Below, one piece after another: positions 10,199 through 34,139 of a stretch of 64,000 nucleotides of DNA. The notes below the pieces were generated by a model. It worked only from the letters and a program-made list of their open reading frames with translations, was not told where the DNA came from and did not search any database. The stretch is from Acidimicrobiia bacterium (lineage in GTDB: Bacteria > Actinomycetota > Acidimicrobiia > Acidimicrobiales > Bin134). The stretch is from positions 4,513 through 68,512 of the forward strand of contig JAJECA010000010.1 in NCBI GenBank assembly GCA_022822265.1. The letters run 5' to 3'. A program made the position numbers and the translations under genes. Positions within the stretch are counted from its first letter, which is position 1; every line of letters begins with the position of its first letter.

Positions 10199-10325
10199 TC
10201 ATCATATGTACACAAGGTGAGCATTTGGTGTCGCCCCTCCCGCCTTCATCACCTCCCACCGGCAGGACCACGGCCCATTGGAACAATCGTCACCACAGGA
10301 TCAAATGGCAGATTCGGCTAGACGT

Positions 10326-10679
10326 TCAGTAGCGCTCAAAGCGGGCGTTGAGTTCTGACATGTCTTCGTGGTCTGTGGTGAGGATGAATGTGCCCAGGCT
10401 CTCTGCGACCACGGTGAGGTGGGCATCGACCACGTCTGAAGTTCCGGATTCTGCGAGTCTGAGGCCCACGCTCACGGACTCGTCGAGAGGGTGGACATCG
10501 AAATAGCGCAGCGAGCGCGACAAGTTTGCCTGCCTGGCCGGATCTCGCCAGACCTGGGCGAGCACCGGATGGGTGGTGTGCAGATCATTGCCACGTTCGG
10601 TCGCCCGCTTGATCAGTGCCCACAGCCGGGAGTTCAGATTCTCACTGTCGAGAATCAGCGGTCCGGCGTCAACGATCAA
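10326..10679 (-). CDS. PIN-domain toxin (VapC family-like)
   Basis: MIVDAGPLI... and ...FILTTDHEDM supply the N- and C-terminal acidic PIN residues. 117 aa. There is a 4-nt overlap with the upstream antitoxin-like gene. Confidence 0.7.
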   Translation of the reverse strand: MIVDAGPLILDSENLNSRLWALIKRATERGNDLHTTHPVLAQVWRDPARQANLSRSLRYFDVHPLDESVSVGLRLAESGTSDVVDAHLTVVAESLGTFILTTDHEDMSELNARFERY

Positions 10680-10921
10680 CGATCCACTCCCTGCCGGTCT
10701 AGAACTGCATCAGCCCATTCGAGATGCTCGGGGCTGATTGGACCCTCATCTGCCTCCCACGAAGCGATCATGTCGAGCATCGCCTGACTGCGGCGCCGGC
10801 GTTTCACCTCGGCAAGCAGAGACCGCTTGATGGCCAGCGTCTTGGTGCCGTCCAATGCCACCAGTTCGGAAAGAGCGGCCTCCATCTCCTCATCAAGGTT
10901 GATCGTTGTCTTCACTACCAT
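10676..10921 (-). CDS. VapB-type antitoxin (TTINLD... class)
   Basis: MVVKTTINLDEEMEAALSELVALDG. I use the ATG at 10921; the track ORF extends to 10945. It has the size and position expected of an antitoxin upstream of the PIN gene. Confidence 0.65.
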   Translation of the reverse strand: MVVKTTINLDEEMEAALSELVALDGTKTLAIKRSLLAEVKRRRRSQAMLDMIASWEADEGPISPEHLEWADAVLDRQGVDR

Positions 10922-19713: not shown

Positions 19714-21516
19714 TCAGCTCAGCTCGAGGCCTTCGAGGGACCCCTCTTCGCGCCACGCCTTTAGGAGCTTGAAGAACTCCTGGGCACCACCGCCGTAGGT
19801 GCCACCGAACCAGCCGGGGCCATCGTCGGGCTTGCCCTCGTTGTTGTAGTAGCCGGGGGTGCACGACTCCAGGAAGCCGGCCCGGCGATAGGCCGACTCC
19901 ATGATGACGCGCACCCAGTCGGACTCGGCCTGCTCGGTGGGCTCGACAACGGTCGCCCCCGCAGACAGTCCGCGCTCGACGATGTAGGCCACGTGCTGGC
20001 TCTGCTCGTTGTAGAGCTCGGTGAAGTTGGGCGAGACCCCCGACTGGATGCCGCCCATGTGCAACAGGTTGGGGTATCCCCGGCTGACCACCCCGTGGAA
20101 GGTGGACATGCCATCGGCCCAACGCTCGCTCAGCGTCACGCCGCCCCGGCCGTAGATCTCGCAGTTGGCCCGGTGGGAGTAGTCGGTGCCCACCTCGAAC
20201 CCGGTGGCGAAGATGATGCAGTCCAGCTCGTACTCCTGGCCTCCGGCCATCACGCCCCTGGGGGTGATGCGCTCGACGCCTTGCCCGTCGGTGTCCACCA
20301 GGGTGACGTTGTCGCGGTTGAAGGTGGGCAGATAGTCGTCGTGGAAGCACGGCCGCTTGCAGAACTGCCGGTAGTAGGGCTTGAGCGCCTCGGCGATGGA
20401 CGAGTCTTCGATCAGCTCGTCTACCCGGCTGCGGATCTGCTCCATCTTCTGGAAGTCGGCCATCTCCATGGCCTCGGCGATCTCCTCGGGCGTGCCCAGA
20501 CGGGCACCCTCGCCCAGCGCGGTGAGGTTGCGCAGGATGTCGGTCCAGCCGTCACTGACCAGGTCTTCCTCCTGCATACTGCCGGCCACGATGTTGCCGA
20601 AGTTCTCAATGCGGTTCTGCTGCCAGCCGGGCTCCAGCGACATGGCCCACTCCGGGTCGGTGGGGCGGTTGCCCCGCACGTCGATGGACGACGGGGTGCG
20701 CTGGAACACGTACAGGTGCTGGGCGGCTTCGCCCACATGGGGGATGCACTGCACCGCGGTGGCGCCGGTGCCGATCACCCCGATCACCTTGTCGGACAGC
20801 TTGGTCAGGTTCCCGTTGGTGTCGCCGCCGGTGTAGTCGTAGTCCCACCTGCTGGTGTGGAACGAGTGGCCCTCATAGGTGTCGATGCCGGCGATGCCGG
20901 GCAGCTTGGGCCGGCTGAGCGGCCCAATGGCCATGATCACGAAGCGGGCCCGCATCCGGTCGTTGTGGTTGGTGTGCAGCACCCAGCGGTGGTCGGCGTC
21001 GTCCCAGTGCATCTCGTGTACCCGGGTGCCGAAGCACACGTCGCGGTACAGGTCGAAGTGGCGGCCCAGCTCCTTGCAGTGCTCCAGGATCTCCGGGCCG
21101 TAGGAGTACTTCTCCTTGGGCATGTAATCGAGCTCTTCCAACAGGGGCAGGTAGATGTACGACTCGATGTCGCACTGCACGCCGGGGTACTGGTTCCAGT
21201 ACCAGGTGCCGCCGAACTCGGCCCCGGTCTCGATCATCCGGATGCTCTCCACCCCCATCTGGCGCAGCCGGGCCCCGGCCAGAAGCCCGCTGAACCCCGT
21301 GCCGATGATGGCCACGTCAACCTCGTCGGTCAGCGGCTCCCGGACGATGCCAGCTTGCGATGGATCGTCCAGATAGCGGGAGAACTCCCCGTCCATGGCG
21401 ATGTACTGGTCGTTGCCGTCGGACCGCAGGCGCTTGTCCCGTTCCTCGCGATACTTCTCCCGGAGAGCGTTGGGGTCGAAGTCCATCCCGGTGTCGGAAG
21501 AGAGAGTGTCGGTCAT
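19714..21516 (-). CDS. Baeyer-Villiger (flavin-containing) monooxygenase
   Basis: GTGFSGL and GTGATA dinucleotide motifs, GGTWYWNQYPG, and a BVMO fingerprint-like YEGHSFHTSRWD. 600 aa. It ends 4 nt upstream of the P450 start. Confidence 0.9.
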   Translation of the reverse strand: MTDTLSSDTGMDFDPNALREKYREERDKRLRSDGNDQYIAMDGEFSRYLDDPSQAGIVREPLTDEVDVAIIGTGFSGLLAGARLRQMGVESIRMIETGAEFGGTWYWNQYPGVQCDIESYIYLPLLEELDYMPKEKYSYGPEILEHCKELGRHFDLYRDVCFGTRVHEMHWDDADHRWVLHTNHNDRMRARFVIMAIGPLSRPKLPGIAGIDTYEGHSFHTSRWDYDYTGGDTNGNLTKLSDKVIGVIGTGATAVQCIPHVGEAAQHLYVFQRTPSSIDVRGNRPTDPEWAMSLEPGWQQNRIENFGNIVAGSMQEEDLVSDGWTDILRNLTALGEGARLGTPEEIAEAMEMADFQKMEQIRSRVDELIEDSSIAEALKPYYRQFCKRPCFHDDYLPTFNRDNVTLVDTDGQGVERITPRGVMAGGQEYELDCIIFATGFEVGTDYSHRANCEIYGRGGVTLSERWADGMSTFHGVVSRGYPNLLHMGGIQSGVSPNFTELYNEQSQHVAYIVERGLSAGATVVEPTEQAESDWVRVIMESAYRRAGFLESCTPGYYNNEGKPDDGPGWFGGTYGGGAQEFFKLLKAWREEGSLEGLELS

Positions 21517-21536
21517 GGCTCACTACGATACGGCCC

Positions 21537-21995
21537 ATGACCTTTGAGGCTCGATTCGACCTGAGTGACGTGGACTGGACCCATATGGAGGGTGGCCCGG
21601 AGTTCGACTATCCCATCGAGTTCGACGTGGCCGTGCTCGGCTCCCAGGCCGACCTCGGCACGCTCGACTTGCTGGTGCGCTTCGCCCCCCACTCCCACTG
21701 TCACTTCCACCGCCACGTGGCCACCACCCGCACCCTGGTGCTCCAGGGCGAGCACCATGTGTTCGATGTGGGTTCCAACGGCGAGACCGTCCACAAGATC
21801 AAGCCCGCTGGCACCTACAGCCAGAGCCCCGCTGGCGAAATTCACATGGAGCGGGGCGGACCCGATGGGGCCATCGTGCTGTTCAACCTGCACACCCCCA
21901 CCGGTGTGCTGTTTGAAACCCTCGACGCCGACCACAACGTGTTGGCCCAATCCACCATCGAGTCGATGTCTGAGGGTCCCTTGATGGGGGCTTGA
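21537..21995 (+). CDS. cupin-like domain protein
   Basis: HSHCHFHRHVATTRTLVLQGEH...GEIHME is a cupin metal-site-like pattern. Internal ATG at 21537 of track ORF 21360..21995. It is divergent from the BVMO gene. Confidence 0.6.
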   Translation: MTFEARFDLSDVDWTHMEGGPEFDYPIEFDVAVLGSQADLGTLDLLVRFAPHSHCHFHRHVATTRTLVLQGEHHVFDVGSNGETVHKIKPAGTYSQSPAGEIHMERGGPDGAIVLFNLHTPTGVLFETLDADHNVLAQSTIESMSEGPLMGA

Positions 21996-22448
21996 TCCAA
22001 TTTCAATGAACAATTCGTCCTAGCGTCGCTCTCGTTTACCCCTGTCTATGTAATACAACAATGCAAGTCCCCTGACCACTCCTAACTCGTCATGGCCAGA
22101 GTGGACTATGGGGTCGTCCTAGACCATTAGACTTCCTTGTGTCTCTATTCCCTAGATTTGTTTCGAATCTCATTGCTAGGCAGAACGCAAACACGACACT
22201 GGTAAACCACAGAGAACACCATCGATCGCATCGTCCAGCTGGAGAGGGTAGGTATCGCCGGCTCTTTTGACCCGCGCCTAGCCCCATACGGCCTGCGTGG
22301 CGATGGAACCGCGTAGCGGAGTGCATGAAACTTGCCCCAGGCCAACAATCACAGCCCACAGTCAACCATGACCTCTCCCTCTTTGCCGCGCCCAGCCTCC
22401 TCTGCTATCATTAGTCCGCTTCACGACGTCCAGATTCAAGGTTCACTG

Positions 22449-22877
22449 ATGAACGACACTATACAAAAATTCGGATATCCAGAGTCCCTAATCTTAGAAA
22501 CCTCCCATTGGGTGGTTCTCCTCCGAGCGAAACAAGTCACCATTGGTTCATTAGTCCTTGCATGTAAAGGTCCAGCGCAAACGCTCGCAGAAATTTCAAC
22601 TGAAGCTGCGAAGGACATGCCTCTCGCTGTCAAACTTCTCGAAGACATCCTACAAAAGTCCTTCTCCCCCAACAAGATCAATTATCTTGCCCTTATGATG
22701 GTAGATCCGCATGTACACTTCCACGTAATACCGAGGTATTCGTCCGAAGTCGAATTAGAAGGAACACTCTACAAAGATACAGGCTGGCCAAAACACCCCG
22801 CAATGACCCAACCGCTAGAACTGACTACTACCCAACTCGACTACGTCAAGTCCCGTCTTCTGGCCAATTCTCCATAG
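22449..22877 (+). CDS. HIT (histidine triad) family protein
   Basis: DPHVHFHVIPRY is a histidine-triad HxHxHxx motif. About 142 aa from the ATG at 22449 (the track ORF begins at 22332). It lies in the low-GC island. Confidence 0.75.
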   Translation: MNDTIQKFGYPESLILETSHWVVLLRAKQVTIGSLVLACKGPAQTLAEISTEAAKDMPLAVKLLEDILQKSFSPNKINYLALMMVDPHVHFHVIPRYSSEVELEGTLYKDTGWPKHPAMTQPLELTTTQLDYVKSRLLANSP

Positions 22878-22903
22878 CTGTCAGGGAACACTAACGCCTC
22901 AGC

Positions 22904-23659
22904 ATGAATATAACGCCAGTAATTTTAGCGGGCGGCCAAGGCACCCGTTTGCAACCCCGAACCCTGCACCTACCCAAACCTCTACTTCCAATCATGCGGA
23001 AGCCTTTAATTGGCCACATCCTTGACTTTCTAGACCATTCCCGCGCCCGCCGACCTATCATTGTGGTAGACTACCTCGCACCAATCTTGGAATCTTATCT
23101 GGTTGGCGAGAACATAAAAGTCCTGCGTTCTTCTAATGCCACCATGGCCGAAAACTTTCTTATAGCCACCTCTGAAGAACCCAACGCGGAATTCTATTGG
23201 GGGTTAAGCAGTGACGTTCTCATCCCTACCCGAATAGCCCCCATGGTAGATGACCTCTGCAATAATACAAATGAGTCTTTTCTCATACTCGCCGAATTAC
23301 CTTCGTTGGGCCACAAGAGATGGAAATACGTAGAACAAGATGGGTATCTTGTCGACATTGTTATCCAAACAAATCGCACATCAACTGAACGGGCTAGCCT
23401 TGTTCTCCACGCAGAAGCTATCTCATTACTCAACGAAACCCTATCAAGGCCGATAACCGAAGTGCCCTCTGATGACCAAATGGCCGGTTACCAAACAGGC
23501 TGGACATTCCTGCTCAAACATCTTGCCATCCGCAATCATCCCATACGAATATTGCGGTCCGGTCTGCCCGTCTACAACATTAATGTGCCAACTGATCTTC
23601 CTGGGGCCCAGAGCTTCATCAGGGACCACTTCACTCACGCGCTTCCGACAAATCCATAA
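22904..23659 (+). CDS. sugar-phosphate nucleotidyltransferase (NTP_transferase family)
   Basis: MNITPVILAGGQGTRLQPRTLHLPKPLLPI is the canonical GxGTRL...KPL N-terminal signature. 251 aa. Confidence 0.85.
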   Translation: MNITPVILAGGQGTRLQPRTLHLPKPLLPIMRKPLIGHILDFLDHSRARRPIIVVDYLAPILESYLVGENIKVLRSSNATMAENFLIATSEEPNAEFYWGLSSDVLIPTRIAPMVDDLCNNTNESFLILAELPSLGHKRWKYVEQDGYLVDIVIQTNRTSTERASLVLHAEAISLLNETLSRPITEVPSDDQMAGYQTGWTFLLKHLAIRNHPIRILRSGLPVYNINVPTDLPGAQSFIRDHFTHALPTNP

Positions 23660-23718
23660 GACTTGTAACTAGATCTTCCTGAATACACTACCCGCCGACC
23701 CCCAGAGCAGCGCGTTTG

Positions 23719-24447
23719 TCAACATTTGTCCGTCCGTTTGGCAATAAACACATGGTGGCTCGAAACCAATCCACGATCTATCATATCATCGCGTGCTTGT
23801 TGGGAATATCCCTCAAAATAAGCGCTCTCCGTAGGTACGCACTTCTCATCTATCCGATGATGTACAACAGCAAATTGAGGTTCCAATAGGTCAATCAATT
23901 GTGCAAAGGAAAAGAAGACATGTTGAATACCTTTCTCAGGCCCATCAAGAGGTTCATACACTAACTTGTCAACTCGTTTGCCTTGAACCAACCTAAAATC
24001 GTTGTCTGTTGCCACATATAAGAACAGATATCCTCCTCTATTGACCAACCTGCTCAATGACAATAGGGCCGCCTTGACATCTTCCACCGACCCGTGATTC
24101 AAGGAGCGAACAGCCAACACTCCGTCATACATTTCACCGTCACGCGCCAACGCCTCAGTGTCCCGAGGATCTATGCAACAAATGCCATTACGAAGTGAAC
24201 ATATGAGAACGTCTCTAGCGACGCGATCCGGTTCCGCCGCCACAACCCTTATGCCTTTGCCCAGAAATAAGTTGGTCAGTTCTCCAGAGCCAGCGCCCAA
24301 ATCTAAAATGACAGGATCACACTGATACCGTACTATCATATTTTGAAACGTGGCTAGGTCATTTGCGAAGGAGGAATAGGACAACCTACCCCCTCCAATA
24401 GAATAAAAGGAATGCCATTCGGATGACACCTGATTTGTAAGCGTCAT
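23719..24447 (-). CDS. class I SAM-dependent methyltransferase
   Basis: VILDLGAGSGELT (motif I) followed by VVAAEPD (acidic motif II). There is a 4-nt overlap with the upstream gene. Confidence 0.85.
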   Translation of the reverse strand: MTLTNQVSSEWHSFYSIGGGRLSYSSFANDLATFQNMIVRYQCDPVILDLGAGSGELTNLFLGKGIRVVAAEPDRVARDVLICSLRNGICCIDPRDTEALARDGEMYDGVLAVRSLNHGSVEDVKAALLSLSRLVNRGGYLFLYVATDNDFRLVQGKRVDKLVYEPLDGPEKGIQHVFFSFAQLIDLLEPQFAVVHHRIDEKCVPTESAYFEGYSQQARDDMIDRGLVSSHHVFIAKRTDKC

Positions 24448-26327
24448 CGTTCTATCAGTGTTTTCAAATGAGTCAGGGATGGTGTTATACCCAAGATTGG
24501 AGTGCGCGCCTTTAAATCAATGTGTTGGGCATACGGATTCAATTGTATTGCCTTCATGCCTAAAATCAACCCTCCAAGAATGTCTGTCCTCAACTTGTCC
24601 CCAACTACTACTGCTTCTTCCGGATTCAATCCAAAATGGTCGAGAACAGCCATAAAGATCCGAGGGTCGGGTTTCAGGAAGCCTGTATGGCAGGAACTCG
24701 TTATCAAGTCTACTGCTCCTCCTAGACCTAACTCTTCAACCACCTGAAGAGAAGGGTTAACTGTATTCGTGACAATAGCTATTCTCAGGCCACTATCTGC
24801 TAACTCTTCGATCGATTCAAATGTGTTTGGCAAAATTTGAACGTGGCGCAAATAGTCCCCCCAGATCGTCAGAAATGTTGATTTGTGCTCAGCGGAGACA
24901 GGGTACCTAGCATTTGGTATGCCCATCTTCAATAGGACTTCAAAAAACCCTTCCTCGTCTATATCGTTTCGCGTCATCCAATTAGCGCGCATTATATCCC
25001 TGAATTGATTCTCATTGGTCAAACCGAAGAGACGTACAATGCGGGGATAGGGATTCACACTTTGTGGAACTTTGATAAGGGTATTCCAGAGGTCCATGAT
25101 TACCAGTTTGACGGTTGAATTGTCTACGTTCGATCCACGATTAATAGTTCGTGGGCGGCGGTTTGGCGGTGATTCCGACCTGGACGAGATTGTCAGTTTA
25201 TGCATCAATCGATTTGCAGCTATGGGTATCCATTGTTCAACTGAAGCTATAGCTTCCTCAAGTGTGCACGGTCTTGGCGCAGATAATTCAATAGCATCTA
25301 TGCCATTGTAATAGTAGAGATCGGAATCATCTGCAACGCCCCCCGCTATTACCACCACTGGTTTGTTGTATTTCTTAGCGTATAGAGCTATGTTGCCAGG
25401 CAGTTTACCTGAAATGCTCCTACGATCTAACACTCCTTCACATGTTATCACCAAATCGCAATCAGCCAATTTGCAATCCAAATCTAGGTAACTGCGCAGT
25501 ACGTCGAAGGAGAACTTTATGTTGGCACCCAGAAGAGCATAAAGCATACCGGCAATTCCCCCGCCGCCCCCCAAACCAGGTATACCCTTCAACATTGTTG
25601 ACAATTGTTCTTCCATCAACGTAGTAAACGACTCGACACCGGCAACTATAGTTTCGAGATCGTCACCGTCCGCCCCCTTCTGAGGGGAGTAGACCCTTGA
25701 CATACACTCACTAGTTCCTAATATGGAAGTCGGGTTGCATGCTACCTCTAAAGAGGCCTCACGGGCTATAAGTTCTGCTAACGGTGATACAATGATTCGG
25801 CGAATGTCCCCCAGGAATCCCCCAACAGGCGGAACTGGCATGTCAAAGGCATCTAGAAATTGTACCCCTAGAGCTGATGCTAGCCCGACCCCGCAATCAA
25901 CAGTTGACGTATCCCCGGTTCCTACTATTATCTCCCTGGCTCCTTCATTGAATGCGTGTTCCACTAGCTGACCTAGTCCGAAGGAGGTTGTGCGAATTGG
26001 ATTCCGTTCTGTTTCCGCTACTAATTCTATGCCCACGGCAGTAGCTGACTCTATTACACAGCGACTATCATCTAGCCACCCTATGCTCCCCATGATCGTT
26101 TCATTGTGCAGGGGATGTAGCGGATGTCTAATCGGAACTTTTTGGATTCGTCCACCTACGGACTCCACTAGGATCTGCGTCAACCCGGACCCGCCGTCTG
26201 CTAACGGAAATTTAACTACATCTAAATTTGGTTCCGTTATTCGCCGAAGGCCCCTCTCTATTAGATCGCACACTTCTCGCGGACTTGCGCTTTCCTTCAT
26301 TCCACCGCTAGCAATAAGGATCTTCAT
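24444..26327 (-). CDS. glycerate kinase fused to a C-terminal HAD-superfamily hydrolase domain
   Basis: The N-terminal ~385 aa read MKILIASGGMKESAS...FPLADGGSGL...GGGGGIAG...VITCEGVLD, which is glycerate kinase class I. After a basic linker come HAD motifs DLWNTL (I), VTNT (II), KPDPRIF (III) and VGDKLRTDILGG (IV). I use the ATG at 26327; the track ORF starts at 26363. Confidence 0.85.
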   Translation of the reverse strand: MKILIASGGMKESASPREVCDLIERGLRRITEPNLDVVKFPLADGGSGLTQILVESVGGRIQKVPIRHPLHPLHNETIMGSIGWLDDSRCVIESATAVGIELVAETERNPIRTTSFGLGQLVEHAFNEGAREIIVGTGDTSTVDCGVGLASALGVQFLDAFDMPVPPVGGFLGDIRRIIVSPLAELIAREASLEVACNPTSILGTSECMSRVYSPQKGADGDDLETIVAGVESFTTLMEEQLSTMLKGIPGLGGGGGIAGMLYALLGANIKFSFDVLRSYLDLDCKLADCDLVITCEGVLDRRSISGKLPGNIALYAKKYNKPVVVIAGGVADDSDLYYYNGIDAIELSAPRPCTLEEAIASVEQWIPIAANRLMHKLTISSRSESPPNRRPRTINRGSNVDNSTVKLVIMDLWNTLIKVPQSVNPYPRIVRLFGLTNENQFRDIMRANWMTRNDIDEEGFFEVLLKMGIPNARYPVSAEHKSTFLTIWGDYLRHVQILPNTFESIEELADSGLRIAIVTNTVNPSLQVVEELGLGGAVDLITSSCHTGFLKPDPRIFMAVLDHFGLNPEEAVVVGDKLRTDILGGLILGMKAIQLNPYAQHIDLKARTPILGITPSLTHLKTLIER

Positions 26328-26329
26328 TG

Positions 26330-27055
26330 TCAAGAGTGTCTTTCTCTGCTGTGGTGTTCCCAAATGGAGTTGAAATGTTCCAGGTATCGCAACCAGACAG
26401 ACGATTTAACGGCAAATTTGAATATTGGGAGGTTCTCCCCAACAAATTCTTGATCTCTATATATTCTTGGACAATGAGGCTCGAAATACACTGCTGATTC
26501 TGTCATTACCATCCATCTCAATATTGGATAGAATGTGCAGAGCTTTACTTCCGTGTGTCTTCTACGGCTCGCGAGGGCTGATGCAGTTTCCACACCGTGA
26601 GCTAGGTCAAGGTATTTTCTAGTAACATTATATTGCTGTTCCTCATGGATTTGCGAATTTATCTTTAGTTCGGTTTGCCGGGACTGTGGGTCTTGTAACA
26701 GGATCTGCAAAGTTGCGCTTGTAGGGGCAACTGAAAGTACTTCAGCGCCCCAACCATCTCCTGTAAGAAAATCCAAAAGAGTTACTCCATATAGGCGGAT
26801 ATGTTGGGCTTCTTTTATGTGGCTCGCCAATTCCAAATGGAAATTGTCCGAGTATCTTGAACTGTAGGTAGCCTGCAAGCCAAGAGAATCCGTGTCCACA
26901 GAATTCGTCCTTAACCTCCTTTCAGCTATGTTCTGCAGAGAAAGGCCCGCTGACGATGCGGTGGCCTTGAGTTCAGCGTGCAGCTCAATCGGAACTCGTA
27001 CATGGATCAGCTGAGTCGGCCCGGGCATTCGGGGAGTGTAGCAGAGTTGTAGCAT
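26330..27055 (-). CDS. putative regulator: N-terminal ribbon-helix-helix plus C-terminal domain of unknown function (tentatively DUF5919-like)
   Basis: IHVRVPIELHAELKATASSAGLSLQNIAERRL is an RHH-like beta-alpha-alpha segment. The assignment of the C-terminal ~170 aa is from memory only. Alternative start at 27028 (MPGPTQ...). It is the first gene of the minus-strand unit. Confidence 0.55.
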   Translation of the reverse strand: MLQLCYTPRMPGPTQLIHVRVPIELHAELKATASSAGLSLQNIAERRLRTNSVDTDSLGLQATYSSRYSDNFHLELASHIKEAQHIRLYGVTLLDFLTGDGWGAEVLSVAPTSATLQILLQDPQSRQTELKINSQIHEEQQYNVTRKYLDLAHGVETASALASRRRHTEVKLCTFYPILRWMVMTESAVYFEPHCPRIYRDQEFVGENLPIFKFAVKSSVWLRYLEHFNSIWEHHSRERHS

Positions 27056-27072
27056 AATGCTAGTTCTGCTAC
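27038..27072. promoter_or_regulatory. nested inverted repeats at the regulator start (candidate operator)
   Basis: GTAGCAGA-N19-TCTGCTAC with an inner TAGCAT-A-ATGCTA. A further CCTGCT-N6-AGCAGG lies at 27078-27095. These sit at or just upstream of the two possible start codons of the RHH gene. Confidence 0.3.
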
Positions 27073-27753
27073 ATTGTCCTGCTTGATCTAGCAGGGATCA
27101 CCAGATGTCCCGGTCTCCGATGCGCCTGCTGATATTTGAGACCCTACCGTTGCTGGTCATGCTGCCCATTGATATTGGCAGCAGAGGTCGCGGTCGGGTG
27201 TTGGTTGCATGACTGTGGGATGAGGAGGCAGCCTGGCACCCTGGTCAATGCGACGATTCGCCGGTTGGGGTAGATGATGCCCAGACCTAGCGACTCATCG
27301 CGGGGTGCTACGGAGGCGGCTGCGGAGTGGCTCGTCCTTGGCAAAAGCAAATTTGGTGGCCCAGTCTCGAGTCTTCGGATGTCGGCGGGCCGCTTGGGAC
27401 GGTGTGCAACAAGAGCGCGATCGGTTTGTGTGACCCAGGCGCCGTGTAAGGCAGTGACGCTCTAGGTGGTTGCGCAGCTTGATCTAACCGAACGCCTTGA
27501 TGGCCGGTCTTGGGGCCATCACCAAGTTTTGGCTCTGGGTTGACAAGACTGCGGCTCTAGAAGTTTCCAGCACCTGGTGATCAAAGAGGTCGAATGCTCA
27601 AGAGATCGACTTGACACTAAGACGTCTGCGGGACACCGCCTGCCGAGCATGGGACCAGAACCAGCTATGCAACAAGGTCAGAAGCGACGGAGGGGGGGAG
27701 AGCAGAGGGCGATCTGGAAACTGAGGATAAGGAGGAAATTGCATGTAAACTTG

Positions 27754-27827
27754 TGGACCGTACTGGACTTGAACCAGTGACCTCTCGCGTGTGAGGCGAG
27801 CGCTCTGGCCATCTGAGCTAACGGTCC
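27754..27827 (-). tRNA. tRNA-Val (anticodon CAC)
   Basis: The reverse complement GGACCGTTAGCTCAGATGGCCAGAGCGCTCGCCTCACACGCGAGAGGTCACTGGTTCAAGTCCAGTACGGTCCA folds as a 74-nt cloverleaf. The anticodon stem is CTCGC/GCGAG with loop CT-CAC-AC, and the T-loop is GGTTCAAGTCC. Confidence 0.9.
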
Positions 27828-27890
27828 GGGGGTCGTTCAGGATAGCTCAGGCCACGTTGGCGGGGCGAAGAGATAGGGCTCCGCTGGCCT

Positions 27891-29279
27891 TCAAGCTGCC
27901 GAGGGCCACATCGTCGGCGCGAACACCTCTTCGCAGTAGGCCATGGCCTGGAGCACCCGCACATCGCTGAGCTGCGGACCCACTAGTTGGAGCCCCACCG
28001 GCATGCCGTCGGCGGCGAAACCGGCCCTCACGCTGCCCGCGGGCAGCCGGGTCAGGTTGTACGGGTAGGTGTGGCGGATCCAGTTGTCGACCAGCTCGCC
28101 GTTTACCAGCCCCTGGCCCCCGCACTCGGGAAAATGGCCGGCCACGGTGGGGGTGAGCAGCAAATCGGCTTCGGCCAGCACACCGTTGAGCGTCTCGGAC
28201 ATCTCGTAGAAGATGTCGAGCGCCCGGTTGAAATCAGCCACTTGGGGACTGGTGGACAGCCCGAAGTAGTAGCGCAACCCGGGGGTGATCTGCTCCATCT
28301 GCTCGTCGGTCAGCTCGCCCAGCTCGCCCGATACCGCGTTGGCCGACAACAGCACGTACTCCCAGATCGGGTCGTTGAACAGGCCCTCTTCCCGCACCTC
28401 CACGGCCACGCCGTCTGCCTCCAACTGGGCCACCGCGGCCTTGCACACCGCCACCACCTCGGCATCGGAAGGCTTGCCGTCGGGTGCCGGGCACCACACC
28501 GCCCGCTTGGGCTGCCAGCCCTCGTCCAGCGCCTGGCGCCATGAACGATCGGGACGGGGCAGGGAGTCGAGGTCGCGGGGCGACGGCCCCATCACCAGAT
28601 CTTGGACGAAGGCGATGTCGGCCACCCGCAGCGCCATCGGCCCGTGGACCGAGAGGGGCCACAGCCGGTAGGTCCCCTCCACCGGCACCCGGCCCAGACT
28701 GGCCTTGAAGCCGCTGAATCCGCAGGCCGCGGCGGGAATGCGGATGGAGCCTCCTCCGTCGGAGCCGGTACATAACGGCACCAAACCGGCCATGAGCGCG
28801 GCCGCAGTGCCACCCGACGATCCGCCCGGTGAGCGCTTTGGGTTCCACGGGTTGCCGGTGGCCCCGAACACGGGGTTGTAGGTGTCGCCGGTCCAGCCGA
28901 ACTCCGGGGTGTTGGTCTTGCCCATCACCACGCAGCCCGCGGCCCGCAGCCGCTCCACCAGAACGCTGTCGGCCTCCGCCGGCGGGTCGCCTGCGTGCAA
29001 AAACGAGCCCTGCGAGGTCACATACCCGGCGGCGTCTTCCAAGTCTTTGACCCCGAACGGAATGCCGGCCAGCGGCCCGACCTCGGCGCCGGAGGCGAGT
29101 CGGGCGTCGATCACGTCGGCCTCGGCCAACGACCGCTCGGGGTTCATGGCCACGAAGGCGTTCAGCTCCTGCTGGGCGTCGATGGCCGCCAGCGAGCCCT
29201 CAACCATCTCCCGAGCCGACACCTCCCGATTGCGCACCGCTGCGGCCCATTCCTGCACCGACCGCTCACGAAAGTCCAT
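27891..29279 (-). CDS. amidase (amidase-signature family)
   Basis: GGSSGGTAAALMAG...GSDGGGSIRIPAAACG is the AS signature with the Ser-cisSer-Lys region. I use the ATG at 29279; the track ORF starts at 29324. Confidence 0.9.
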   Translation of the reverse strand: MDFRERSVQEWAAAVRNREVSAREMVEGSLAAIDAQQELNAFVAMNPERSLAEADVIDARLASGAEVGPLAGIPFGVKDLEDAAGYVTSQGSFLHAGDPPAEADSVLVERLRAAGCVVMGKTNTPEFGWTGDTYNPVFGATGNPWNPKRSPGGSSGGTAAALMAGLVPLCTGSDGGGSIRIPAAACGFSGFKASLGRVPVEGTYRLWPLSVHGPMALRVADIAFVQDLVMGPSPRDLDSLPRPDRSWRQALDEGWQPKRAVWCPAPDGKPSDAEVVAVCKAAVAQLEADGVAVEVREEGLFNDPIWEYVLLSANAVSGELGELTDEQMEQITPGLRYYFGLSTSPQVADFNRALDIFYEMSETLNGVLAEADLLLTPTVAGHFPECGGQGLVNGELVDNWIRHTYPYNLTRLPAGSVRAGFAADGMPVGLQLVGPQLSDVRVLQAMAYCEEVFAPTMWPSAA

Positions 29280-29348
29280 CTCCGCCTCCTCCGTCGACCA
29301 AACCCCGACAGTACATCCAGCCAATGCCGCTGTGAGCCGCGGCCAGCC

Positions 29349-30647
29349 TCAGCCTTCGACCAGCGCAGCGGCCACTGCTTCTAGGCCAGCGGCGCGGCTG
29401 GCCTTGACCAGGACGGCGGTGTCGCCTTCGAGTGGACCAAGAGCTGCTACCGCGGCGGCGGCATCATCCACCGGGGCCAGTCCGTAGTCGGCAGTGGCTA
29501 CGGGGATGACCTCGATGCCCAACTCTTGGGCCAAGGCGCCGATGGCGGCGTGTTCGGCTGCGGTCCGGTCTCCCAATTCGGCCATGACCCCCAGCACCGC
29601 CACTCGGCGGGGTCGGTCCACGGCGGCCAGTGAGCGCAGCGCGGCGTCCATCGACATGGGATTGGCGTTGTAGGAGTCGTTGATGAGCACCGCCCCCGAG
29701 GCCAGCTCGGCCACCTCCATGCGCCACGGCGACAGTTGAGCCGAGCCCAATCCGGCGGCGATGTCTTCCAAACCCACTCCTACGGCCAATGCAGCCGCGG
29801 CGGCCGCCAGCGCGTTGTCCACCATGTGCTCGCCGCACACCGACAAGGCCACATCGGCCTGCCCATCGGGTGTCTCTAGCCGGAATCGGGGACGCAGCCT
29901 GCCGTCCAGGCTCACCCTCGAGGCATGAACTTCCCCCATGACGCGGCCAAAGGTCAGCACCGCAGCCTCGGTCCGCTCGGCCATGGCCGCCACCAAGGGC
30001 TGATCGGCGTTGAGCACGGCAACGCCCGAGCTGTCCAGCGACTCCACCAACTCGCCTTTGGCCTCGGCCACGGCCTCCACGGTCCCAAACAACTCGGTGT
30101 GGGCCGCCCCGACAGACGTCACCACTCCGACGGTGGGCCGGGCCAGCGAGCAGAGCCAGGCGATATGGCCCATGCCCCGAGCCCCCATCTCAACCACCAC
30201 CGCCTCGGCGCCCCCCGGCCGATTCACCAGGGTGAGGGGCACGCCCAGTTCGTTGTTGAACGACATTGGGCTGGCGTGGGTCGGTCGGTCCGCCCCGATG
30301 GCCGCTGAGGCCATGTCCTTTACCGAGGTCTTCCCCACCGAACCCGTGATGCCCACCACCGGGCCGTTGAACCGGCTGCGGGCGTGGCGGCCCAACTGGG
30401 CCAGGGCGGCGGCGGTGTCGTCCACTACCACTGCGGTGGCTCCTTGGGGGGCCTCAGCGGTCAGATAGGCCGCTGCCCCCGCGGCCAAGGCGTCGTCGAT
30501 GAAGTCGTGGCCGTCTCGCTCGGCCACCACCGGCACGAACAATTCGCCTGAAGCCACCGTCCTTGAGTCGATGGAGAATCCCGACAGTTCGACATCGGGA
30601 CCCACCAGCCGGCCCCCCACCGCCTGGGCCACCTCCGATGCCGACAT
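29349..30647 (-). CDS. murF: UDP-N-acetylmuramoyl-tripeptide--D-alanyl-D-alanine ligase
   Basis: MSASEVAQAVGGRLVGPDVELSGFSIDSRTVASGELFVP..., GITGSVGKTS P-loop, DSYNANP. I use the ATG at 30647. The longer track ORF (to 31160) is antisense to ddl. Confidence 0.85.
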   Translation of the reverse strand: MSASEVAQAVGGRLVGPDVELSGFSIDSRTVASGELFVPVVAERDGHDFIDDALAAGAAAYLTAEAPQGATAVVVDDTAAALAQLGRHARSRFNGPVVGITGSVGKTSVKDMASAAIGADRPTHASPMSFNNELGVPLTLVNRPGGAEAVVVEMGARGMGHIAWLCSLARPTVGVVTSVGAAHTELFGTVEAVAEAKGELVESLDSSGVAVLNADQPLVAAMAERTEAAVLTFGRVMGEVHASRVSLDGRLRPRFRLETPDGQADVALSVCGEHMVDNALAAAAAALAVGVGLEDIAAGLGSAQLSPWRMEVAELASGAVLINDSYNANPMSMDAALRSLAAVDRPRRVAVLGVMAELGDRTAAEHAAIGALAQELGIEVIPVATADYGLAPVDDAAAAVAALGPLEGDTAVLVKASRAAGLEAVAAALVEG

Positions 30648-30683
30648 TCGCACACGCTTAGCCTCCCACTGTCGGGGCAATCG

Positions 30684-31742
30684 GTGGGGTACCGTCGGCC
30701 TGTGGGAACCCGCACCCGCTTGGTGCTGCTTTTTGGCGGCCGGTCGGCCGAGCACGACGTGTCGTGCGTGTCGGCCCGCCATGTGGTTGCCGCGGCCGAC
30801 AAAGAACGCTTCGAAGTGGTGGCTCTGGGCATTACCCGGGACGGGCAATGGCGGCTGGCTGAGCTTTCCGAGCCCCTTCCCGACCAATTGGATGCCGACG
30901 GACTCGCCGTGGCCCCAGCCGAGATCTTCGCCGAGCCCGACACGGTGGTGTTCCCCCTGGTGCACGGCCCCATGGGCGAGGACGGCACCATTCAAGGACT
31001 GCTGGAAGTGGCCGACGTCCCGTACGTGGGATCGGGGGTGCTGGCTTCTGCGGTGTGCATGGACAAGGCCATGGCCAAGCTGGTGTGCGCCCGGCACGGG
31101 CTTGCCCAATGCCACTTCCGGACGGCATCGTCCGACGACCGCCCCGAAGCGGTGGCCCAACAGGCCATCGCCGAGTTGGGGCTGCCGCTCTTTGTCAAGC
31201 CGGCCAACATGGGCTCATCGGTGGGGGTGAGCCGGGCTAACACCGAATTCGAGACGGTCAAAGCGCTGGAGGCCGCCGCCCAATACGACCAGACGCTGAT
31301 CATCGAGGAGGCCGTCGCCGGCCAGGAGATCGAAGTGTCGGTTCTGGGAAACCGCGATCCCGAGGCATCGGTCCCCGGCGAGATCGTGCCCGGCGCCGAG
31401 TTCTACGACTACGCCGACAAGTACCTAACCGACGGCGCCAAGCTGCTGGTTCCCGCCCAGATTTCGGAAACTGCTGCCCAAGAGGCCCAGCGCCTGGCGA
31501 TCGCCGCCTACCGCGCCCTGCGGTGCGAGGGCATGGCCCGGGTGGACTTCCTCTACGAATCCGACGGCCGGGGAATGCTGCTCAGCGAGATCAACACTAT
31601 TCCCGGCTTCACTCCCATAAGCATGTATCCCAAGCTCTGGGAGGCCAGCGGCCTGCCCTACCCCCAGCTCATCGAAACCCTGGTCGACCTAGCCGTAGAA
31701 CGCTACGAGCGCCGCCGCCAACACCGCCGCACCGACCGCTGA
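30684..31742 (+). CDS. ddl: D-alanine--D-alanine ligase
   Basis: LVLLFGGRSAEHDVSCVSA..., LFVKPANMGSSVGVS, EINTIPGFT. GTG at 30684 or 30702. Confidence 0.9.
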   Translation: MGYRRPVGTRTRLVLLFGGRSAEHDVSCVSARHVVAAADKERFEVVALGITRDGQWRLAELSEPLPDQLDADGLAVAPAEIFAEPDTVVFPLVHGPMGEDGTIQGLLEVADVPYVGSGVLASAVCMDKAMAKLVCARHGLAQCHFRTASSDDRPEAVAQQAIAELGLPLFVKPANMGSSVGVSRANTEFETVKALEAAAQYDQTLIIEEAVAGQEIEVSVLGNRDPEASVPGEIVPGAEFYDYADKYLTDGAKLLVPAQISETAAQEAQRLAIAAYRALRCEGMARVDFLYESDGRGMLLSEINTIPGFTPISMYPKLWEASGLPYPQLIETLVDLAVERYERRRQHRRTDR

Positions 31743-31826
31743 GCCGAAGGTCCAACACCGCGGCAATCGACCACTGAGATAGCGAGTGGGCTGGGGAAAA
31801 GTGGCTGGGTTTGGTAAAACACTGCG

Positions 31827-34139
31827 GTGATCTCTGATGCGCTGGCCGGCAAGCGGCTGGCGATCACCGGCACGACCGGTTTCCTGGGCACCGCTCTCGT
31901 GGAGCGGCTGTTGCGCTGCGTGCCCGAGGTGGAATTGGTGCTGCTGGTGCGTCCCGGCCGCCGAGGGGCAGAACAGCGCATTCGGCGGGAGATAATCCGC
32001 AACGACGTCTTCGACCGGCTGCGCGACGACATGGGCACCGACGAGTTTGAGCGGCTGTGCCAGGATCAAATCACCGGCGTGGCCGGCGACGTGGGCGTCG
32101 ACGGCCTGGGGCTGGACGACGCTGGCCGGGAGCTGATCGCCGGCTGCGACATCGTCATCCACTCGGCTGCTGCGGTGGCCTTCGACAACCCGCTGGACAC
32201 CGCGGTGGAAGTCAACCTCATGGGGCCGGTTCGGCTGGTGAACATGCTCAACGAGATGGGAGCGTCCCCCCACTTCATCGCGGTGTCCACCTGCTACGTG
32301 GCCGGCAGCCGCCGGGGGAACGCCCCCGAGGAACCCCTGGCCGACGGCCCCATGTACGTGCCGGTGTCATGGCAGGACGAGGCCGACGCCAGCCGCCGCC
32401 GGCGCATCACCACCGAGACCGAGAGCCGCGACCCCGCCCGCCTGGAGGAGTTCCGCAGCCGGGCCCGCCACGAGCTGGGCGCGGCCGGCACCCCGGCGCT
32501 GGCGGCCAAGACCGAACAGCTCCGCAGCCGCTGGGTCCACGACCAGATGGTGGAGGCGGGCCGATCGAGGGCCGCTTCGCTGGGCTTCCCCGACGCCTAC
32601 GCCTTCACCAAGGCGCTGGCCGAGACCGCGGTAGCCGAGACCAAAGGCGACTTGAAGGTCTCCACCGTGCGGCCGTCGATCATCGAGTCGGCCTATGCCG
32701 AGCCCTTCCCGGGGTGGATCCGGGGCTTCCGCATGGCCGAGCCCATCATCATCGGCTATGGCCGGGGGCTGCTCACCGACTTCCCCGGCATCCCCCAGGG
32801 GGTGCTGGATGTGATTCCGGTGGACTTGGTGGCCGCCGCCATCTGCGCGGTGGCCGCCCGGGGCCACGACCCCGACCAGCCGGTGATCCAGGTGGCATCC
32901 GGCGCGGTCAACCCGTTCCGGCTCAACCAGCTGGTGGACCTGGCCCACGGCTGGTTCAGCGAGAACCCCATCTACGACGACCGCGACCAGCCCATCCCGC
33001 CGCCCAACTGGACCTATCCCGGCCGGGGCCGGGTGGTCCGCCAGCTCAAGAGGCTAAGAACCGGGCTGAACGCCGGTGAGCGGGTGCTGGGGCGGCTGCC
33101 CATCCGGGGCCGCCAAGCCGAGATCACCGCCGATCTCGACGAGCGCCGCGATCAGGTGGAGCGGGCGCTGGGCTACGTGGAGCTCTACGGGGCCTACACC
33201 GAGTGCGAGGCACTGTTCGGGGTGAACCGGCTGCTGGAGCTGTGGGACAGCCTGGACGACGAAGACAAGGAGCTGTACTGCTTCGACCCCCGGATCATCG
33301 ACTGGCCCCACTACGTGGTCGACATCCACTTGCCCACCGTGGTGGCCCAGGGCCGGGTCAAGACCGCCCCGTCGGGACGCTCGGGTCCATCCCGCAAGGT
33401 CCGCCAGCGAACCCAGATCCTCTCCCCCGACCGGCACATGGCGGCCTTCGACTTGGAGAACACCGTCATCGCCGCCAACGTGGTCATGGCCTACGGCTGG
33501 CTGGCCACCCGGCGGCTGCCATTGGATGAGCGGGCCCGACTGGTGGCCAAGATATTGCTGGAGGCCCCGTCGCTTCTGGCCCTGGACCACCGGGACCGCA
33601 GCGACTTCCTCCGCCACTTCTACCGCCGCTACCAGGGAGCGCCGATAGAGCAGATGGCCGAGGACTCCGGCGAGATGTTCAGCGACTTGATCCTGACCCA
33701 GTCGTACCCCGCCGCCATCCGCCGGGTGCGCCAGCACCGCGCCGCGGGACACACCACCGTGCTGATCACCGGCGCGCTGGACTTCATCGTGGAGCCGCTT
33801 CGCCCGCTGTTCGACCACATCGTGTGCGCCGAGCTGGCCCATGCCAATGGCGCCTACACCGGGCAGCTGGCCGAAGTGCCGCCCACCAGCGAGTCGCGGG
33901 CCGAGGTGCTGCGGGACTTCGCCAACGCCGAGGGGCTGCTCATGTCGGAGTCGGTGGCCTATGCCGACTCGGCCAGCGACCTGGCCCTGCTGGAGGCGGT
34001 GGGCTACCCGGTGGCGGTGAACCCCGAGCCCAAGCTGGCCATGCTGGCCCGCAAGCGGGGGTGGCTCATCGAGTACTTCGACAAAGCCCCCGGCGGCCCC
34101 CGCAAGCTGCTGCCCATCGGATCCAGGAAGGCATCATGA
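31827..34139 (+). CDS. fatty acyl-CoA/ACP reductase (extended SDR, NAD_binding_4-like) fused to a HAD-IB-type hydrolase domain
   Basis: N-terminus: LAITGTTGFLGTALVERLL...VLLVRPG...IVIHSAAAV...YAFTKALAE. C-terminus: AAFDLENTVI (HAD motif I) ... VLITGALD ... YADSASDLALLEAVGYPVAVNP. Confidence 0.85.
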   Translation: MISDALAGKRLAITGTTGFLGTALVERLLRCVPEVELVLLVRPGRRGAEQRIRREIIRNDVFDRLRDDMGTDEFERLCQDQITGVAGDVGVDGLGLDDAGRELIAGCDIVIHSAAAVAFDNPLDTAVEVNLMGPVRLVNMLNEMGASPHFIAVSTCYVAGSRRGNAPEEPLADGPMYVPVSWQDEADASRRRRITTETESRDPARLEEFRSRARHELGAAGTPALAAKTEQLRSRWVHDQMVEAGRSRAASLGFPDAYAFTKALAETAVAETKGDLKVSTVRPSIIESAYAEPFPGWIRGFRMAEPIIIGYGRGLLTDFPGIPQGVLDVIPVDLVAAAICAVAARGHDPDQPVIQVASGAVNPFRLNQLVDLAHGWFSENPIYDDRDQPIPPPNWTYPGRGRVVRQLKRLRTGLNAGERVLGRLPIRGRQAEITADLDERRDQVERALGYVELYGAYTECEALFGVNRLLELWDSLDDEDKELYCFDPRIIDWPHYVVDIHLPTVVAQGRVKTAPSGRSGPSRKVRQRTQILSPDRHMAAFDLENTVIAANVVMAYGWLATRRLPLDERARLVAKILLEAPSLLALDHRDRSDFLRHFYRRYQGAPIEQMAEDSGEMFSDLILTQSYPAAIRRVRQHRAAGHTTVLITGALDFIVEPLRPLFDHIVCAELAHANGAYTGQLAEVPPTSESRAEVLRDFANAEGLLMSESVAYADSASDLALLEAVGYPVAVNPEPKLAMLARKRGWLIEYFDKAPGGPRKLLPIGSRKAS

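Follow-up and report, generated by a model that had tools for sequence, protein, structure and literature searches.

What might a bacterium make with a HIT hydrolase, a short nucleotidyltransferase (NTase), a glycerate kinase fused to a HAD hydrolase, a methyltransferase (MTase) and a ribbon-helix-helix (RHH) protein encoded side by side? The question is raised by a low-GC island of ~5.7 kb in an Acidimicrobiia bacterium (assembly GCA_022822265.1). It occupies positions 21996-27752 of the window, by which we mean the whole stretch of 64,000 nucleotides analyzed here (contig JAJECA010000010.1, positions 4,513 to 68,512 of the forward strand), and is bounded by a cupin stop codon (21995) on one side and by a tRNA-Val gene on the other. 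We tentatively read the island as a horizontally acquired, self-regulated copy of a rare operon for a small-molecule pathway around nucleotide-activated phosphoglycerate.

Searches of PADLOC, PHROGs, NCBIfam and the literature (for the gene combination, methylglycerate, defense together with glycerate kinase, DUF5919 and PF02595) returned no description of this module. It is built from known folds, and the central reaction envisioned for it has a precedent from 2025, so it is not categorically new.

Recurrence of the gene set and the enzymes it encodes

Orthologues of the NTase, glycerate kinase, HAD and MTase genes co-occur in eight other loci, accompanied by HIT, by a metallo-beta-lactamase (MBL) hydrolase or by both, and the encoded proteins are 28-53% identical to those of the window (gene orders in Table 1). 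Membership is kept while order, strand and fusion state vary, which argues for a functional module. Both HIT with NTase and glycerate kinase with HAD and MTase are found together in unrelated loci, so the five genes are not a set confined to this genome, a possibility that the initial annotation had raised. Judged by these comparisons, the gene set is a rare, putatively mobile operon found in a handful of distant bacteria. The MBL protein of the other loci is UPF0173-like (PRK00685, 82-88 bits); within the window, neither an MBL gene nor a trace of one turned up. No glycosyltransferase was found at any locus.

A distant variant (L014 397-4039, the locus of protein P0104) encodes a HIT protein, a TPR protein, an AAA_33 P-loop kinase and a fusion of a His_Phos_1 domain like that of dPGM (2,3-bisphosphoglycerate-dependent phosphoglycerate mutase) to an NTase; it has no glycerate kinase, HAD or MTase. 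Since its kinase and phosphatase are not homologous to those of the main module while its HIT protein belongs to the same subfamily, a four-part set made up of a kinase, a phosphatase or mutase, an NTase and this HIT subfamily has been put together twice.

The NTase of the window is predicted to be a phosphoglycerate nucleotidylyltransferase, and we consider this assignment probable. Phosphoglycerate is suggested as the acceptor by the domains to which members of the family are fused: a Gly_kinase domain follows the NTase in P0070, and in P0104, P0113 and P0177 the NTase is preceded by an N-terminal His_Phos_1 domain, which in P0104 passes the cut-off of the dPGM subfamily (TIGR01258, 103.9 vs 81.7). 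A further tie to an enzyme that makes phosphoglycerate is the presence of Gly_kinase in the same operon at every locus long enough to judge. Another protein, P0107, joins a dTMP-kinase-like domain to the NTase. The signature residues K138, W140, E162, R163, G199, N225 and N227 are kept in all of the fusion proteins aligned; for W200, as for D231, a single fusion protein has a different residue.

Pfam and NCBIfam matches of the NTase are confined to the N-terminal nucleotide loop, and MurU and HddC are among its weak best matches in NCBIfam. The AlphaFold2 (AF2) model, with a predicted local distance difference test (pLDDT) score of 94.8, has a standard nucleotidyltransferase fold; its best Foldseek matches are MurU (at the top), LicC, UGPase, GlmU, RmlA and IPCT, at 15-20% identity, with template modeling (TM) scores of 0.65-0.78 to LicC, MurU and RmlA. 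The family is very small. A HMMER profile search of 1.84 billion proteins yielded 28 cluster representatives at E<=1e-30. Scans for loci in genomes, metagenomes and viruses, made with a four-sequence NTase alignment, found a single locus, that of the Thermoanaerobaculia, among genomes taken one per species (185,579 species), and none in viral contigs or in JGI metagenome contigs. Searches of plasmids and phages (tblastn with the NTase) returned only distant haloarchaeal GlmU-like genes and the N-domain of an Enterococcus phage glycosyltransferase, at 24-25% identity, which are not members of the module.

That phage N-domain (L017 6001-6666, Enterococcus phage Planchet; also present in phages 9183 and TJE4) is part of a 543-aa "glycosyltransferase" and covers 95% of the window NTase. 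Its neighbors are genes for a thymidylate synthase/hydroxymethylase, a dUTPase, a polynucleotide kinase and glycosyltransferases, and the cluster looks like a DNA-hypermodification module.

The five genes proposed in the initial annotation are all there, with the HVHFHVIPRY and GGQGTRL motifs in place, and profile searches (Pfam) bear out HIT, NTP_transferase, a class I methyltransferase, and Gly_kinase and HAD in one open reading frame (ORF). The glycerate kinase domain scores 306 against TIGR00045 (cut-off 168) and 224 bits against PDB 3cwc, and stays below the equivalog cut-offs of GlxK and GarK (226 vs 686 and 212 vs 625). In comparison with 25 ordinary glycerate kinases, it keeps 48 of 64 near-invariant family residues. 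Six substitutions at such near-invariant positions (D20G, G151D, D210N, N213S, A266G and G285S) recur among the five module kinases; four of these changes occur in every one of the five, and the other two in four of them. Among 5.8 billion proteins no close relative of the kinase::HAD fusion was found, the next best match being an ordinary glycerate kinase at 39% identity, which suggests that the fusion itself is unique to this lineage.

In L003, L006, L011 and L019, HAD is a separate gene. Motif I reads DLWNT in the window and DLWNT or DLGNT in all five orthologues, so that the nucleophile is present and the general acid at Asp+2 is absent; motifs II-IV are intact in the five-orthologue alignment, as V(T/S)N(T/A), LKPDPRIF and VGDKxxTD. 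The same motif I, FDLGNV, is found in YihX, an alpha-D-glucose-1-phosphate phosphatase (PDB 8pno). Given that YihX is active with this motif, phosphatase activity is possible for the HAD domain, whose substrate would then probably be a phosphate that has a good leaving group.

The MTase has orthologues in L003, L006 and L011 at 30-38% identity. The best NCBIfam neighbors of these orthologues are BioC, UbiE/G, TehB and the DVU_1556 type, all below cut-off, and matches to nucleic-acid methyltransferases are weak; the enzymes resemble small-molecule methyltransferases. For HIT, the Pfam score is 26 bits (cut-off 21.5), and its relatives in PDB are the HIT proteins 2oik and 3i24, NitFhit and Fhit, of which NitFhit and Fhit are the nearest characterized. 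Enzymes of the Fhit branch cleave NMP-phosphoanhydrides. HIT orthologues stand beside the NTase in L003 (47.5% identity), L019 (53%) and L020 (48%), and in the distant variant L014 (38%).

Packing is tight. HIT and NTase are 26 nt apart, the RHH stop and the kinase start are separated by 2 nt, and the kinase::HAD and MTase genes do overlap by 4 nt (24444-24447), as initially annotated. Gene calls differ among identical copies of the island, with the MTase called as 221 or 242 aa, the kinase::HAD fusion as 579 or 627 aa, and HIT left uncalled in L008; database protein lengths for the island are therefore unreliable. In L001 the gene caller placed an ORF antisense to the cupin gene (window 21513-22013, minus strand) where the cupin gene should be.

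Table 1. Features of the island and its right border (window coordinates), and gene orders at the related loci
Feature	Position	Strand	Description
Left border spacer	21996-22448		Non-coding; G+C falls directly after the cupin stop at 21995
Promoter-like site	22383-22411	+	HIT gene downstream; TTGCCG, 17 nt, TATCAT, with upstream TG; 38 nt before the HIT ATG; consensus match only
Fhit-like HIT protein	22449-22877	+	142 aa from ATG 22449; TTG-start ORF from 22332; HVHFHVIPRY triad intact
NTase	22904-23659	+	251 aa; short NTP_transferase fold; founder of a very small family; LAGGQGTRL loop
MTase, class I, S-adenosylmethionine (SAM)-dependent	23719-24447	-	242 aa; last gene of the minus-strand operon; Pfam Methyltransf_23, _11, _25
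Glycerate kinase (GlyK)::HAD fusion	24444-26327	-	627 aa from the likely start ATG 26327; TTG-start ORF from 26363
HAD-IA hydrolase domain	24444-25112	-	Pfam Hydrolase, HAD_2, Hydrolase_like; TIGR02253 78 bits
Glycerate kinase domain (class I, PF02595)	25200-26327	-	Pfam Gly_kinase 317.7 bits vs 23.3
RHH protein	26330-27028	-	232 aa from ATG 27028; alternative start 27055; first gene of the minus-strand operon
Inverted repeat	27048-27073		TGTAGCATAA-n6-TTCTGCTACA (TGTAGCA...TGCTACA); 20-45 nt upstream of the RHH gene start
Spacer next to tRNA	27074-27752		ORF-free, 57% G+C (composition, six-frame translation, Rfam)
tRNA-Val(CAC), right border	27753-27827	-	ARAGORN and Rfam (68.7 bits); 3' end toward the island
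L003/L010, Thermoanaerobaculia metagenome-assembled genome			HIT-NTase convergent with MBL-MTase-HAD-GlyK
L006, contig of 70% GC			NTase-RHH-GlyK-HAD-MTase-MBL
L011			MBL-NTase::GlyK-HAD-MTase
L012			MBL-NTase-GlyK
L013			NTase-RHH-GlyK
L019			HIT-GlyK-HAD-NTase
L020			HIT-NTase
L007			72% identical RHH protein, then GlyK

The island, its borders and its presumed regulator

The island is of foreign origin. G+C content is 46-50% within it against a window average of 67%, and in a 1-kb profile it passes from 0.64-0.68 outside to 0.465-0.505 across 22-27 kb. G+C at third codon positions (GC3) is 0.44-0.50 in the five island genes and 0.82-0.93 in the flanking genes for P450, Baeyer-Villiger monooxygenase (BVMO), cupin, amidase, Ddl and glutaminyl-tRNA synthetase. 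The abrupt drop after the cupin stop had been annotated with counts of 22/60 at 22441-22500 and 39/60 at 21601-21660, both of which are exact. In a sister strain (L009, corresponding to window 20625-34475), 56 single-nucleotide polymorphisms (SNPs) all fall in flanking core genes, where they cluster in the BVMO gene, in ddl and at 33.5-34.0 kb; the island is free of them. A G+C drop of ~20 points, a GC3 drop of ~40 points and the SNP-free island in L009 together support the horizontal acquisition that was initially proposed. The lack of SNPs fits recent acquisition, a sweep, or strain mixing in assembly.

The geometry at the right border held up in part. A tRNA-Val gene does abut the island with its 3' end, one base longer than annotated (27753-27827, not 27754-27827). 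As the initial annotation had it, the island carries no integrase, transposase or glycosyltransferase ORF, on which the ORF list, Pfam and six-frame translation agree, and no integrase remnant is apparent by eye in six-frame translations of 21996-22448 and 27056-27752. Nor is the tRNA 3' end repeated at the far border: the best local match to the tRNA scores 11 (shuffled controls, 8.9 +/- 1.0, maximum 13) and leaves out that 3' end. With neither integrase nor attachment-site (att) repeat, the "classical" integration geometry is just half present. The island thus resembles tRNA-associated genomic islands in its sharp compositional break, its position against a tRNA 3' end and its accessory cargo, and differs from them in having no integrase and no att direct repeat; an empty site did not come up among three contigs.

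Those three contigs all bear an identical amidase gene, and all contain the island. Public metagenome contigs L001, L002 and L008 match the region at 100% identity. One of them, L001 (window 21393-27782), is an independent assembly that ends inside tRNA-Val and just upstream of the cupin gene; these breaks may be a sign that the population is heterogeneous on either side of the island.

The RHH gene is separated from tRNA-Val by an ORF-free stretch of ~700 nt (27056-27752) of intermediate G+C (57%), in which Rfam found no match, the tRNA being the sole hit within the region. A terminator-like hairpin lies inside it (27509-27526, plus strand). Elsewhere in the window, a second low-GC stretch at 7.1-10.2 kb (region 7100-10700) holds an 853-aa ORF (7637-10198, minus strand; GC3 0.45) with a probable signal or anchor sequence. 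It is adjoined by a gene for an RCC1-like repeat protein of 749 aa (5398-7647, minus strand) and by a PIN-like ORF (10326-10679, minus strand). Foreign-looking islands are accordingly not unique in this genome.

The proposal that the island has its own regulator is supported by the retention of the RHH gene inside the operon at two other loci (L006 and L013), where orthologues of 28-31% identity lie between the NTase and kinase genes; in L007, a homologue that is far closer precedes the kinase gene. Its designation as an RHH regulator is sound in that the same match (HicB, FitA or CopG-like) recurs in three of four orthologues, and incomplete in that the Pfam match is below threshold (E 0.0025) and the protein has two domains, a CopG/HicB/FitA-like N-terminus and a DUF5919-like C-terminal domain of ~180 aa. 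The latter resembles proteins of L022 and L023 in hhalign (96.7% probability, E 3e-10), and the L022 protein matches Pfam DUF5919. A profile search of PDB with the RHH protein returned ParD-like RHH alone, and its AF2 model, built from a two-sequence alignment, is unusable (pLDDT 38). The relatives in L022 (1191-2090) and L023 (709-1557) are membrane-anchored DUF5919-domain proteins on contigs of ~40% GC, which carry no module genes.

Upstream of the RHH gene, the inverted repeat at 27048-27073 is surrounded by further TAGCA/TGCTA half-sites and is a plausible candidate operator. The RHH protein is presumed to be an autoregulator with a sensor domain, and would repress the operon at this repeat.

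A proposed pathway around nucleotide-activated phosphoglycerate

How might these enzymes act together? In the proposed pathway, the divergent class I glycerate kinase would phosphorylate glycerate or a very close analogue, and the NTase would join the resulting phospho-acid to an NTP, giving NDP-glycerate and PPi. The SAM-dependent MTase may then methylate the acid in its nucleotide-bound form, either on a hydroxyl or on the carboxylate. The Fhit-like HIT protein would remove NMP, a task that at other loci could fall to the UPF0173-like MBL hydrolase, alone or beside HIT, and the atypical HAD, YihX-like and without general acid, would remove the remaining phosphate. Two outcomes can be envisioned. 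The nucleotide could serve as a temporary handle, like the one used by Fom1, Fom3 and FomD on the way to fosfomycin; alternatively, methylated NDP-glycerate could itself be the product, with HIT, MBL and HAD turning it over or controlling its level. All of the substrates, the order of the steps and the role of the regulator are ones that we infer from sequence, and our confidence in the order of the later steps is much less than our confidence in phosphoglycerate as the acceptor.

The closest precedent for the central step comes from Caulobacter crescentus. Its CpgD (CCNA_01210), a short cytidylyltransferase of the COG1213 type, makes CDP-glycerate from CTP and 2- or 3-phosphoglycerate, and crystal structures with bound product are available (PMC12275187, PMC13228409; entries 10WG-10WK). 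The glycerate-contacting residues of CpgD are Asn90, Asn110, Met147, Lys161 and Ser170. With CTP and 2-phospho-D-glycerate, CpgD carries out the condensation envisioned here for the NTase; CDP-glycerate was reported in 2025 (PMC12275187). Formation of CDP-glycerate is thereby proven for short nucleotidyltransferases of the LicC/Cj1416-like (COG1213) class, to which the window NTase may also belong. Judged by fold and motif, CpgD and the window NTase are alike as short single-domain nucleotidyltransferases with the same alpha/beta/alpha fold and a catalytic Arg in a glycine-rich loop; they would also share the phosphoglycerate acceptor, which for the window NTase is predicted from fusions. They differ in setting, since CpgD belongs to a sphingolipid (ceramide diphosphoglycerate) operon with CpgA-C whereas the window module has no lipid genes and instead combines glycerate kinase, HAD, MTase, HIT or MBL, and an RHH regulator. 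Taken together, the CpgD precedent and the fusions of the NTase to a glycerate kinase and to phosphoglycerate-mutase-like domains make NDP-glycerate the most economical product to propose, in keeping with the nucleotide-linked glycerate derivative that the initial annotation had suggested.

Other pathways offer analogies for the later steps. In fosfomycin biosynthesis, the cytidylyltransferase domain of Fom1, the methyltransferase Fom3 and the hydrolase FomD carry out a transient cytidylylation: an NMP handle is attached to a small phospho(no)-acid, the methyl group is added to the nucleotide-bound form, and hydrolysis then releases the NMP. The likeness is one of logic only: the fosfomycin route works on a phosphonate supplied by phosphoenolpyruvate (PEP) mutase, its Fom3 is a radical-SAM enzyme that uses cobalamin, and its FomD belongs to DUF402, families that are all absent from the module. 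The Campylobacter O-methyl phosphoramidate (MeOPN) pathway (Cj1415-Cj1420) resembles the module in that kinase and hydrolase activities are joined there to a COG1213 cytidylyltransferase and to SAM methyltransferases, all acting on a small phosphorylated group. It differs in its kinases (a glutamine kinase and an adenosine phosphosulfate (APS)-kinase-like kinase), its phosphoramidate substrate and its location in a capsule locus with transferases. One of its enzymes, Cj1416, accepts phosphoglycerate in vitro (PMC12275187).

The exchange of HAD for His_Phos_1 between the main module and the L014 variant has a counterpart in the mannosyl- and glucosyl-glycerate routes. There (MpgS/MpgP and GpgS/GpgP), a phosphoglycerate intermediate is dephosphorylated by a dedicated phosphatase that is HAD-type or His_Phos_1 depending on the lineage. 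Those routes differ in that they need a glycosyltransferase, and mannosyl- or glucosyl-glycerate synthesis was rejected as a candidate, there being no GpgS or MpgS at the module loci. Two further candidates were rejected likewise: loading of 2-O-methylglycerate of the aeruginosin/FkbH type, because there is no nonribosomal peptide synthetase (NRPS) or acyl carrier protein (ACP), and an F420-type CofC/FbiD plus CofD pathway, because neither CofC nor CofD has a match in Pfam or NCBIfam.

Several observations weigh against the proposed pathway. The six systematic substitutions in the kinase suggest that its substrate may not be glycerate, and is perhaps a glycerate analogue. Asp+2 is missing from all five HADs, and their role as phosphatases is an assumption. 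In the fusions, His_Phos_1 could have replaced HAD as a phosphatase and not be a mutase, which would weaken the Rosetta-stone argument, yet would still point to phosphoglycerate-like ligands. Methylation may not be central, since the L014 variant lacks the MTase and none is seen on the short contig L019. Cleavage of the NTase product by HIT would be futile if no modification took place in between. Finally, the loci share no conserved transferase, exporter or other protein that would use up the product.

Competing explanations and what the module may mean

The readings that compete with a nucleotide-activated phosphoglycerate pathway differ in how much of its chemistry they share. One concerns the biological role and is compatible with that chemistry: the module could be an anti-phage or conflict system in which a nucleotide-phosphoglycerate conjugate, possibly methylated, acts as toxic antimetabolite, NTP mimic or alarm signal, with HIT, MBL and HAD as off-switch or self-protection. 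We regard this as unlikely. HIT hydrolases are known immunity proteins against nucleotide antibiotics, which fits such an assignment. The genomic contexts are also suggestive. In L003/L010, the module is directly beside genes for Avs4 (361 bits), an NsnA-like DUF262 protein, a DNA methyltransferase and a RelA_SpoT-like protein; in L011 it is followed by a type I restriction-modification (R-M) system; HipBA and a TCAD9 protein are encoded near it in L006; and in L019 it abuts an rve transposase gene in which the locus ends. The window copy is itself a tRNA-adjacent island, and the patchy, extremely rare distribution is typical of accessory conflict genes. Legionella SidL offers a chemical precedent, adenylating 3-phosphoglycerate to 2-AMP-3-phosphoglycerate, which poisons glycolysis (PMC13431035). 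It too sets a nucleotide-phosphoglycerate conjugate in a biological conflict, and differs in having an unrelated fold (MCF1-SHE/PAP2 superfamily) and in being a secreted effector that acts in a eukaryotic host.

Within the L003/L010 neighborhood (L003 130-9271), the order directly upstream of the module is a 1687-aa Avs4 homologue, an N6-MTase-like gene, the NsnA-like DUF262 gene overlapping the RelA_SpoT-like gene, and then HIT-NTase.

Against a role in defense, PADLOC v2 has no model that matches the HIT, NTase, kinase::HAD or RHH proteins, the MTase giving the only hit, a weak generic methyltransferase match (mad2, 1e-6). No defense gene flanks the island within the window, and the module contains no familiar sensor or effector. 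Clear defense islands make up just two of the four long contexts (the window and three other loci), a small sample; the lack of relatives in viral contigs is uninformative either way. The initial annotation had allowed for a role in modification or defense, and the Avs4 and type I R-M neighbors somewhat strengthen the case for such a possible role. A more explicit version, to which we give only a small chance, is an undescribed conflict or immunity system whose effector, a (methylated) nucleotide-diphospho-glycerate, would be made on demand from glycerate and NTP to serve as NTP mimic, glycolytic poison or alarm signal, with HIT, MBL and HAD as antidote or reset and the RHH-DUF5919 protein as switch.

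A second competing reading keeps the NTase reaction and changes its destination. CDP-glycerate or another NDP-glycerate could be a phosphoglycerate donor for an envelope lipid or glycan, much as with CpgD, with the transferase encoded elsewhere and the MTase modifying head group or donor. Service as a presumed head-group donor is the sole characterized use of CDP-glycerate (PMC12275187), the same work predicts that a dedicated enzyme for phosphoglycerate supply is possible, which a glycerate kinase would fit, and the NTase fold is closest to donor-forming enzymes of the LicC, MurU and IPCT type. Even so, we think a donor pathway quite unlikely: across nine loci, no transferase, ceramide or sphingolipid gene, glycosyltransferase, flippase or membrane protein is conserved, HIT, MBL and HAD would have no role in a simple donor pathway, and each new host of an island that moves between phyla would have to offer a suitable acceptor together with the transferase to go with it.

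It is improbable that the module instead serves salvage, catabolism or metabolite repair, with a sugar-1-phosphate or other phospho-alcohol as the substrate of the NTase in place of phosphoglycerate, like GmhB/HddA/HddC or MupP/AmgK/MurU. Kinase, phosphatase and NTase do make up the logic of the GDP-heptose and MurNAc-recycling routes, and the parallel extends to the place of MurU and HddC among the weak NCBIfam matches and of MurU at the top in Foldseek, to a HAD motif I equal to that of the sugar-1-phosphate phosphatase YihX, and to the altered active-site positions of the kinase. The kinase, however, belongs clearly to PF02595 (318 bits), a family known for glycerate alone, and the dPGM-like fusions indicate phosphoglycerate. 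The module comes with no isomerase, transporter or glycosyltransferase, and the sequence matches to sugar NTases are limited to the generic nucleotide loop.

The list of kinase, phosphatase, nucleotidyltransferase and methyltransferase also mirrors RNA-repair toolkits, and a system for healing or modifying nucleic-acid ends, analogous to Pnkp/Hen1 and with an aprataxin-like HIT and an RNase-like MBL, might be imagined from it. A weak match of the L014 kinase to bacterial Pnkp (E 0.004) and the defense-island contexts of some loci point the same way. Yet the families are not of a nucleic-acid type (a Gly_kinase, an RmlA-like NTase with no ligase domain, and small-molecule MTases that are not Hen1), and RHH is the only nucleic-acid-binding domain, which together make such a system highly improbable. 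Pnkp/Hen1 RNA repair as a pathway was rejected, for its P-loop polynucleotide kinase, ligase-type adenylyltransferase and Hen1 methyltransferase are absent.

That unrelated housekeeping or decaying genes were juxtaposed by accident in a junk island, as the missing integrase and att repeat and the commonness of each family by itself might suggest, is scarcely credible and is effectively refuted by the co-occurrence data, given that the set recurs in eight other loci with its membership kept and its order and strand shuffled, that all ORFs are intact with catalytic motifs preserved and gene ends that overlap or nearly abut, and that domain fusions join its members.

A nucleotide-activated phosphoglycerate pathway, if its chemistry holds, would imply a new class of metabolites, methylated NDP-glycerates or O-methyl-(phospho)glycerates, and would give a function to an NTase family of 28 members and a HIT subfamily, both of them orphans, as well as to a DUF5919-type regulator. 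It would provide a second, unrelated setting for nucleotide-activated glycerate, beyond one enzyme in one lipid pathway, in an operon that appears to link methylation and nucleotide cleavage, the latter by two kinds of hydrolase, to a glycerate kinase and a nucleotidyltransferase of its own. Should a role in defense prove true, five genes in 5 kb would constitute a small-molecule-producing immune system of a new chemical type.

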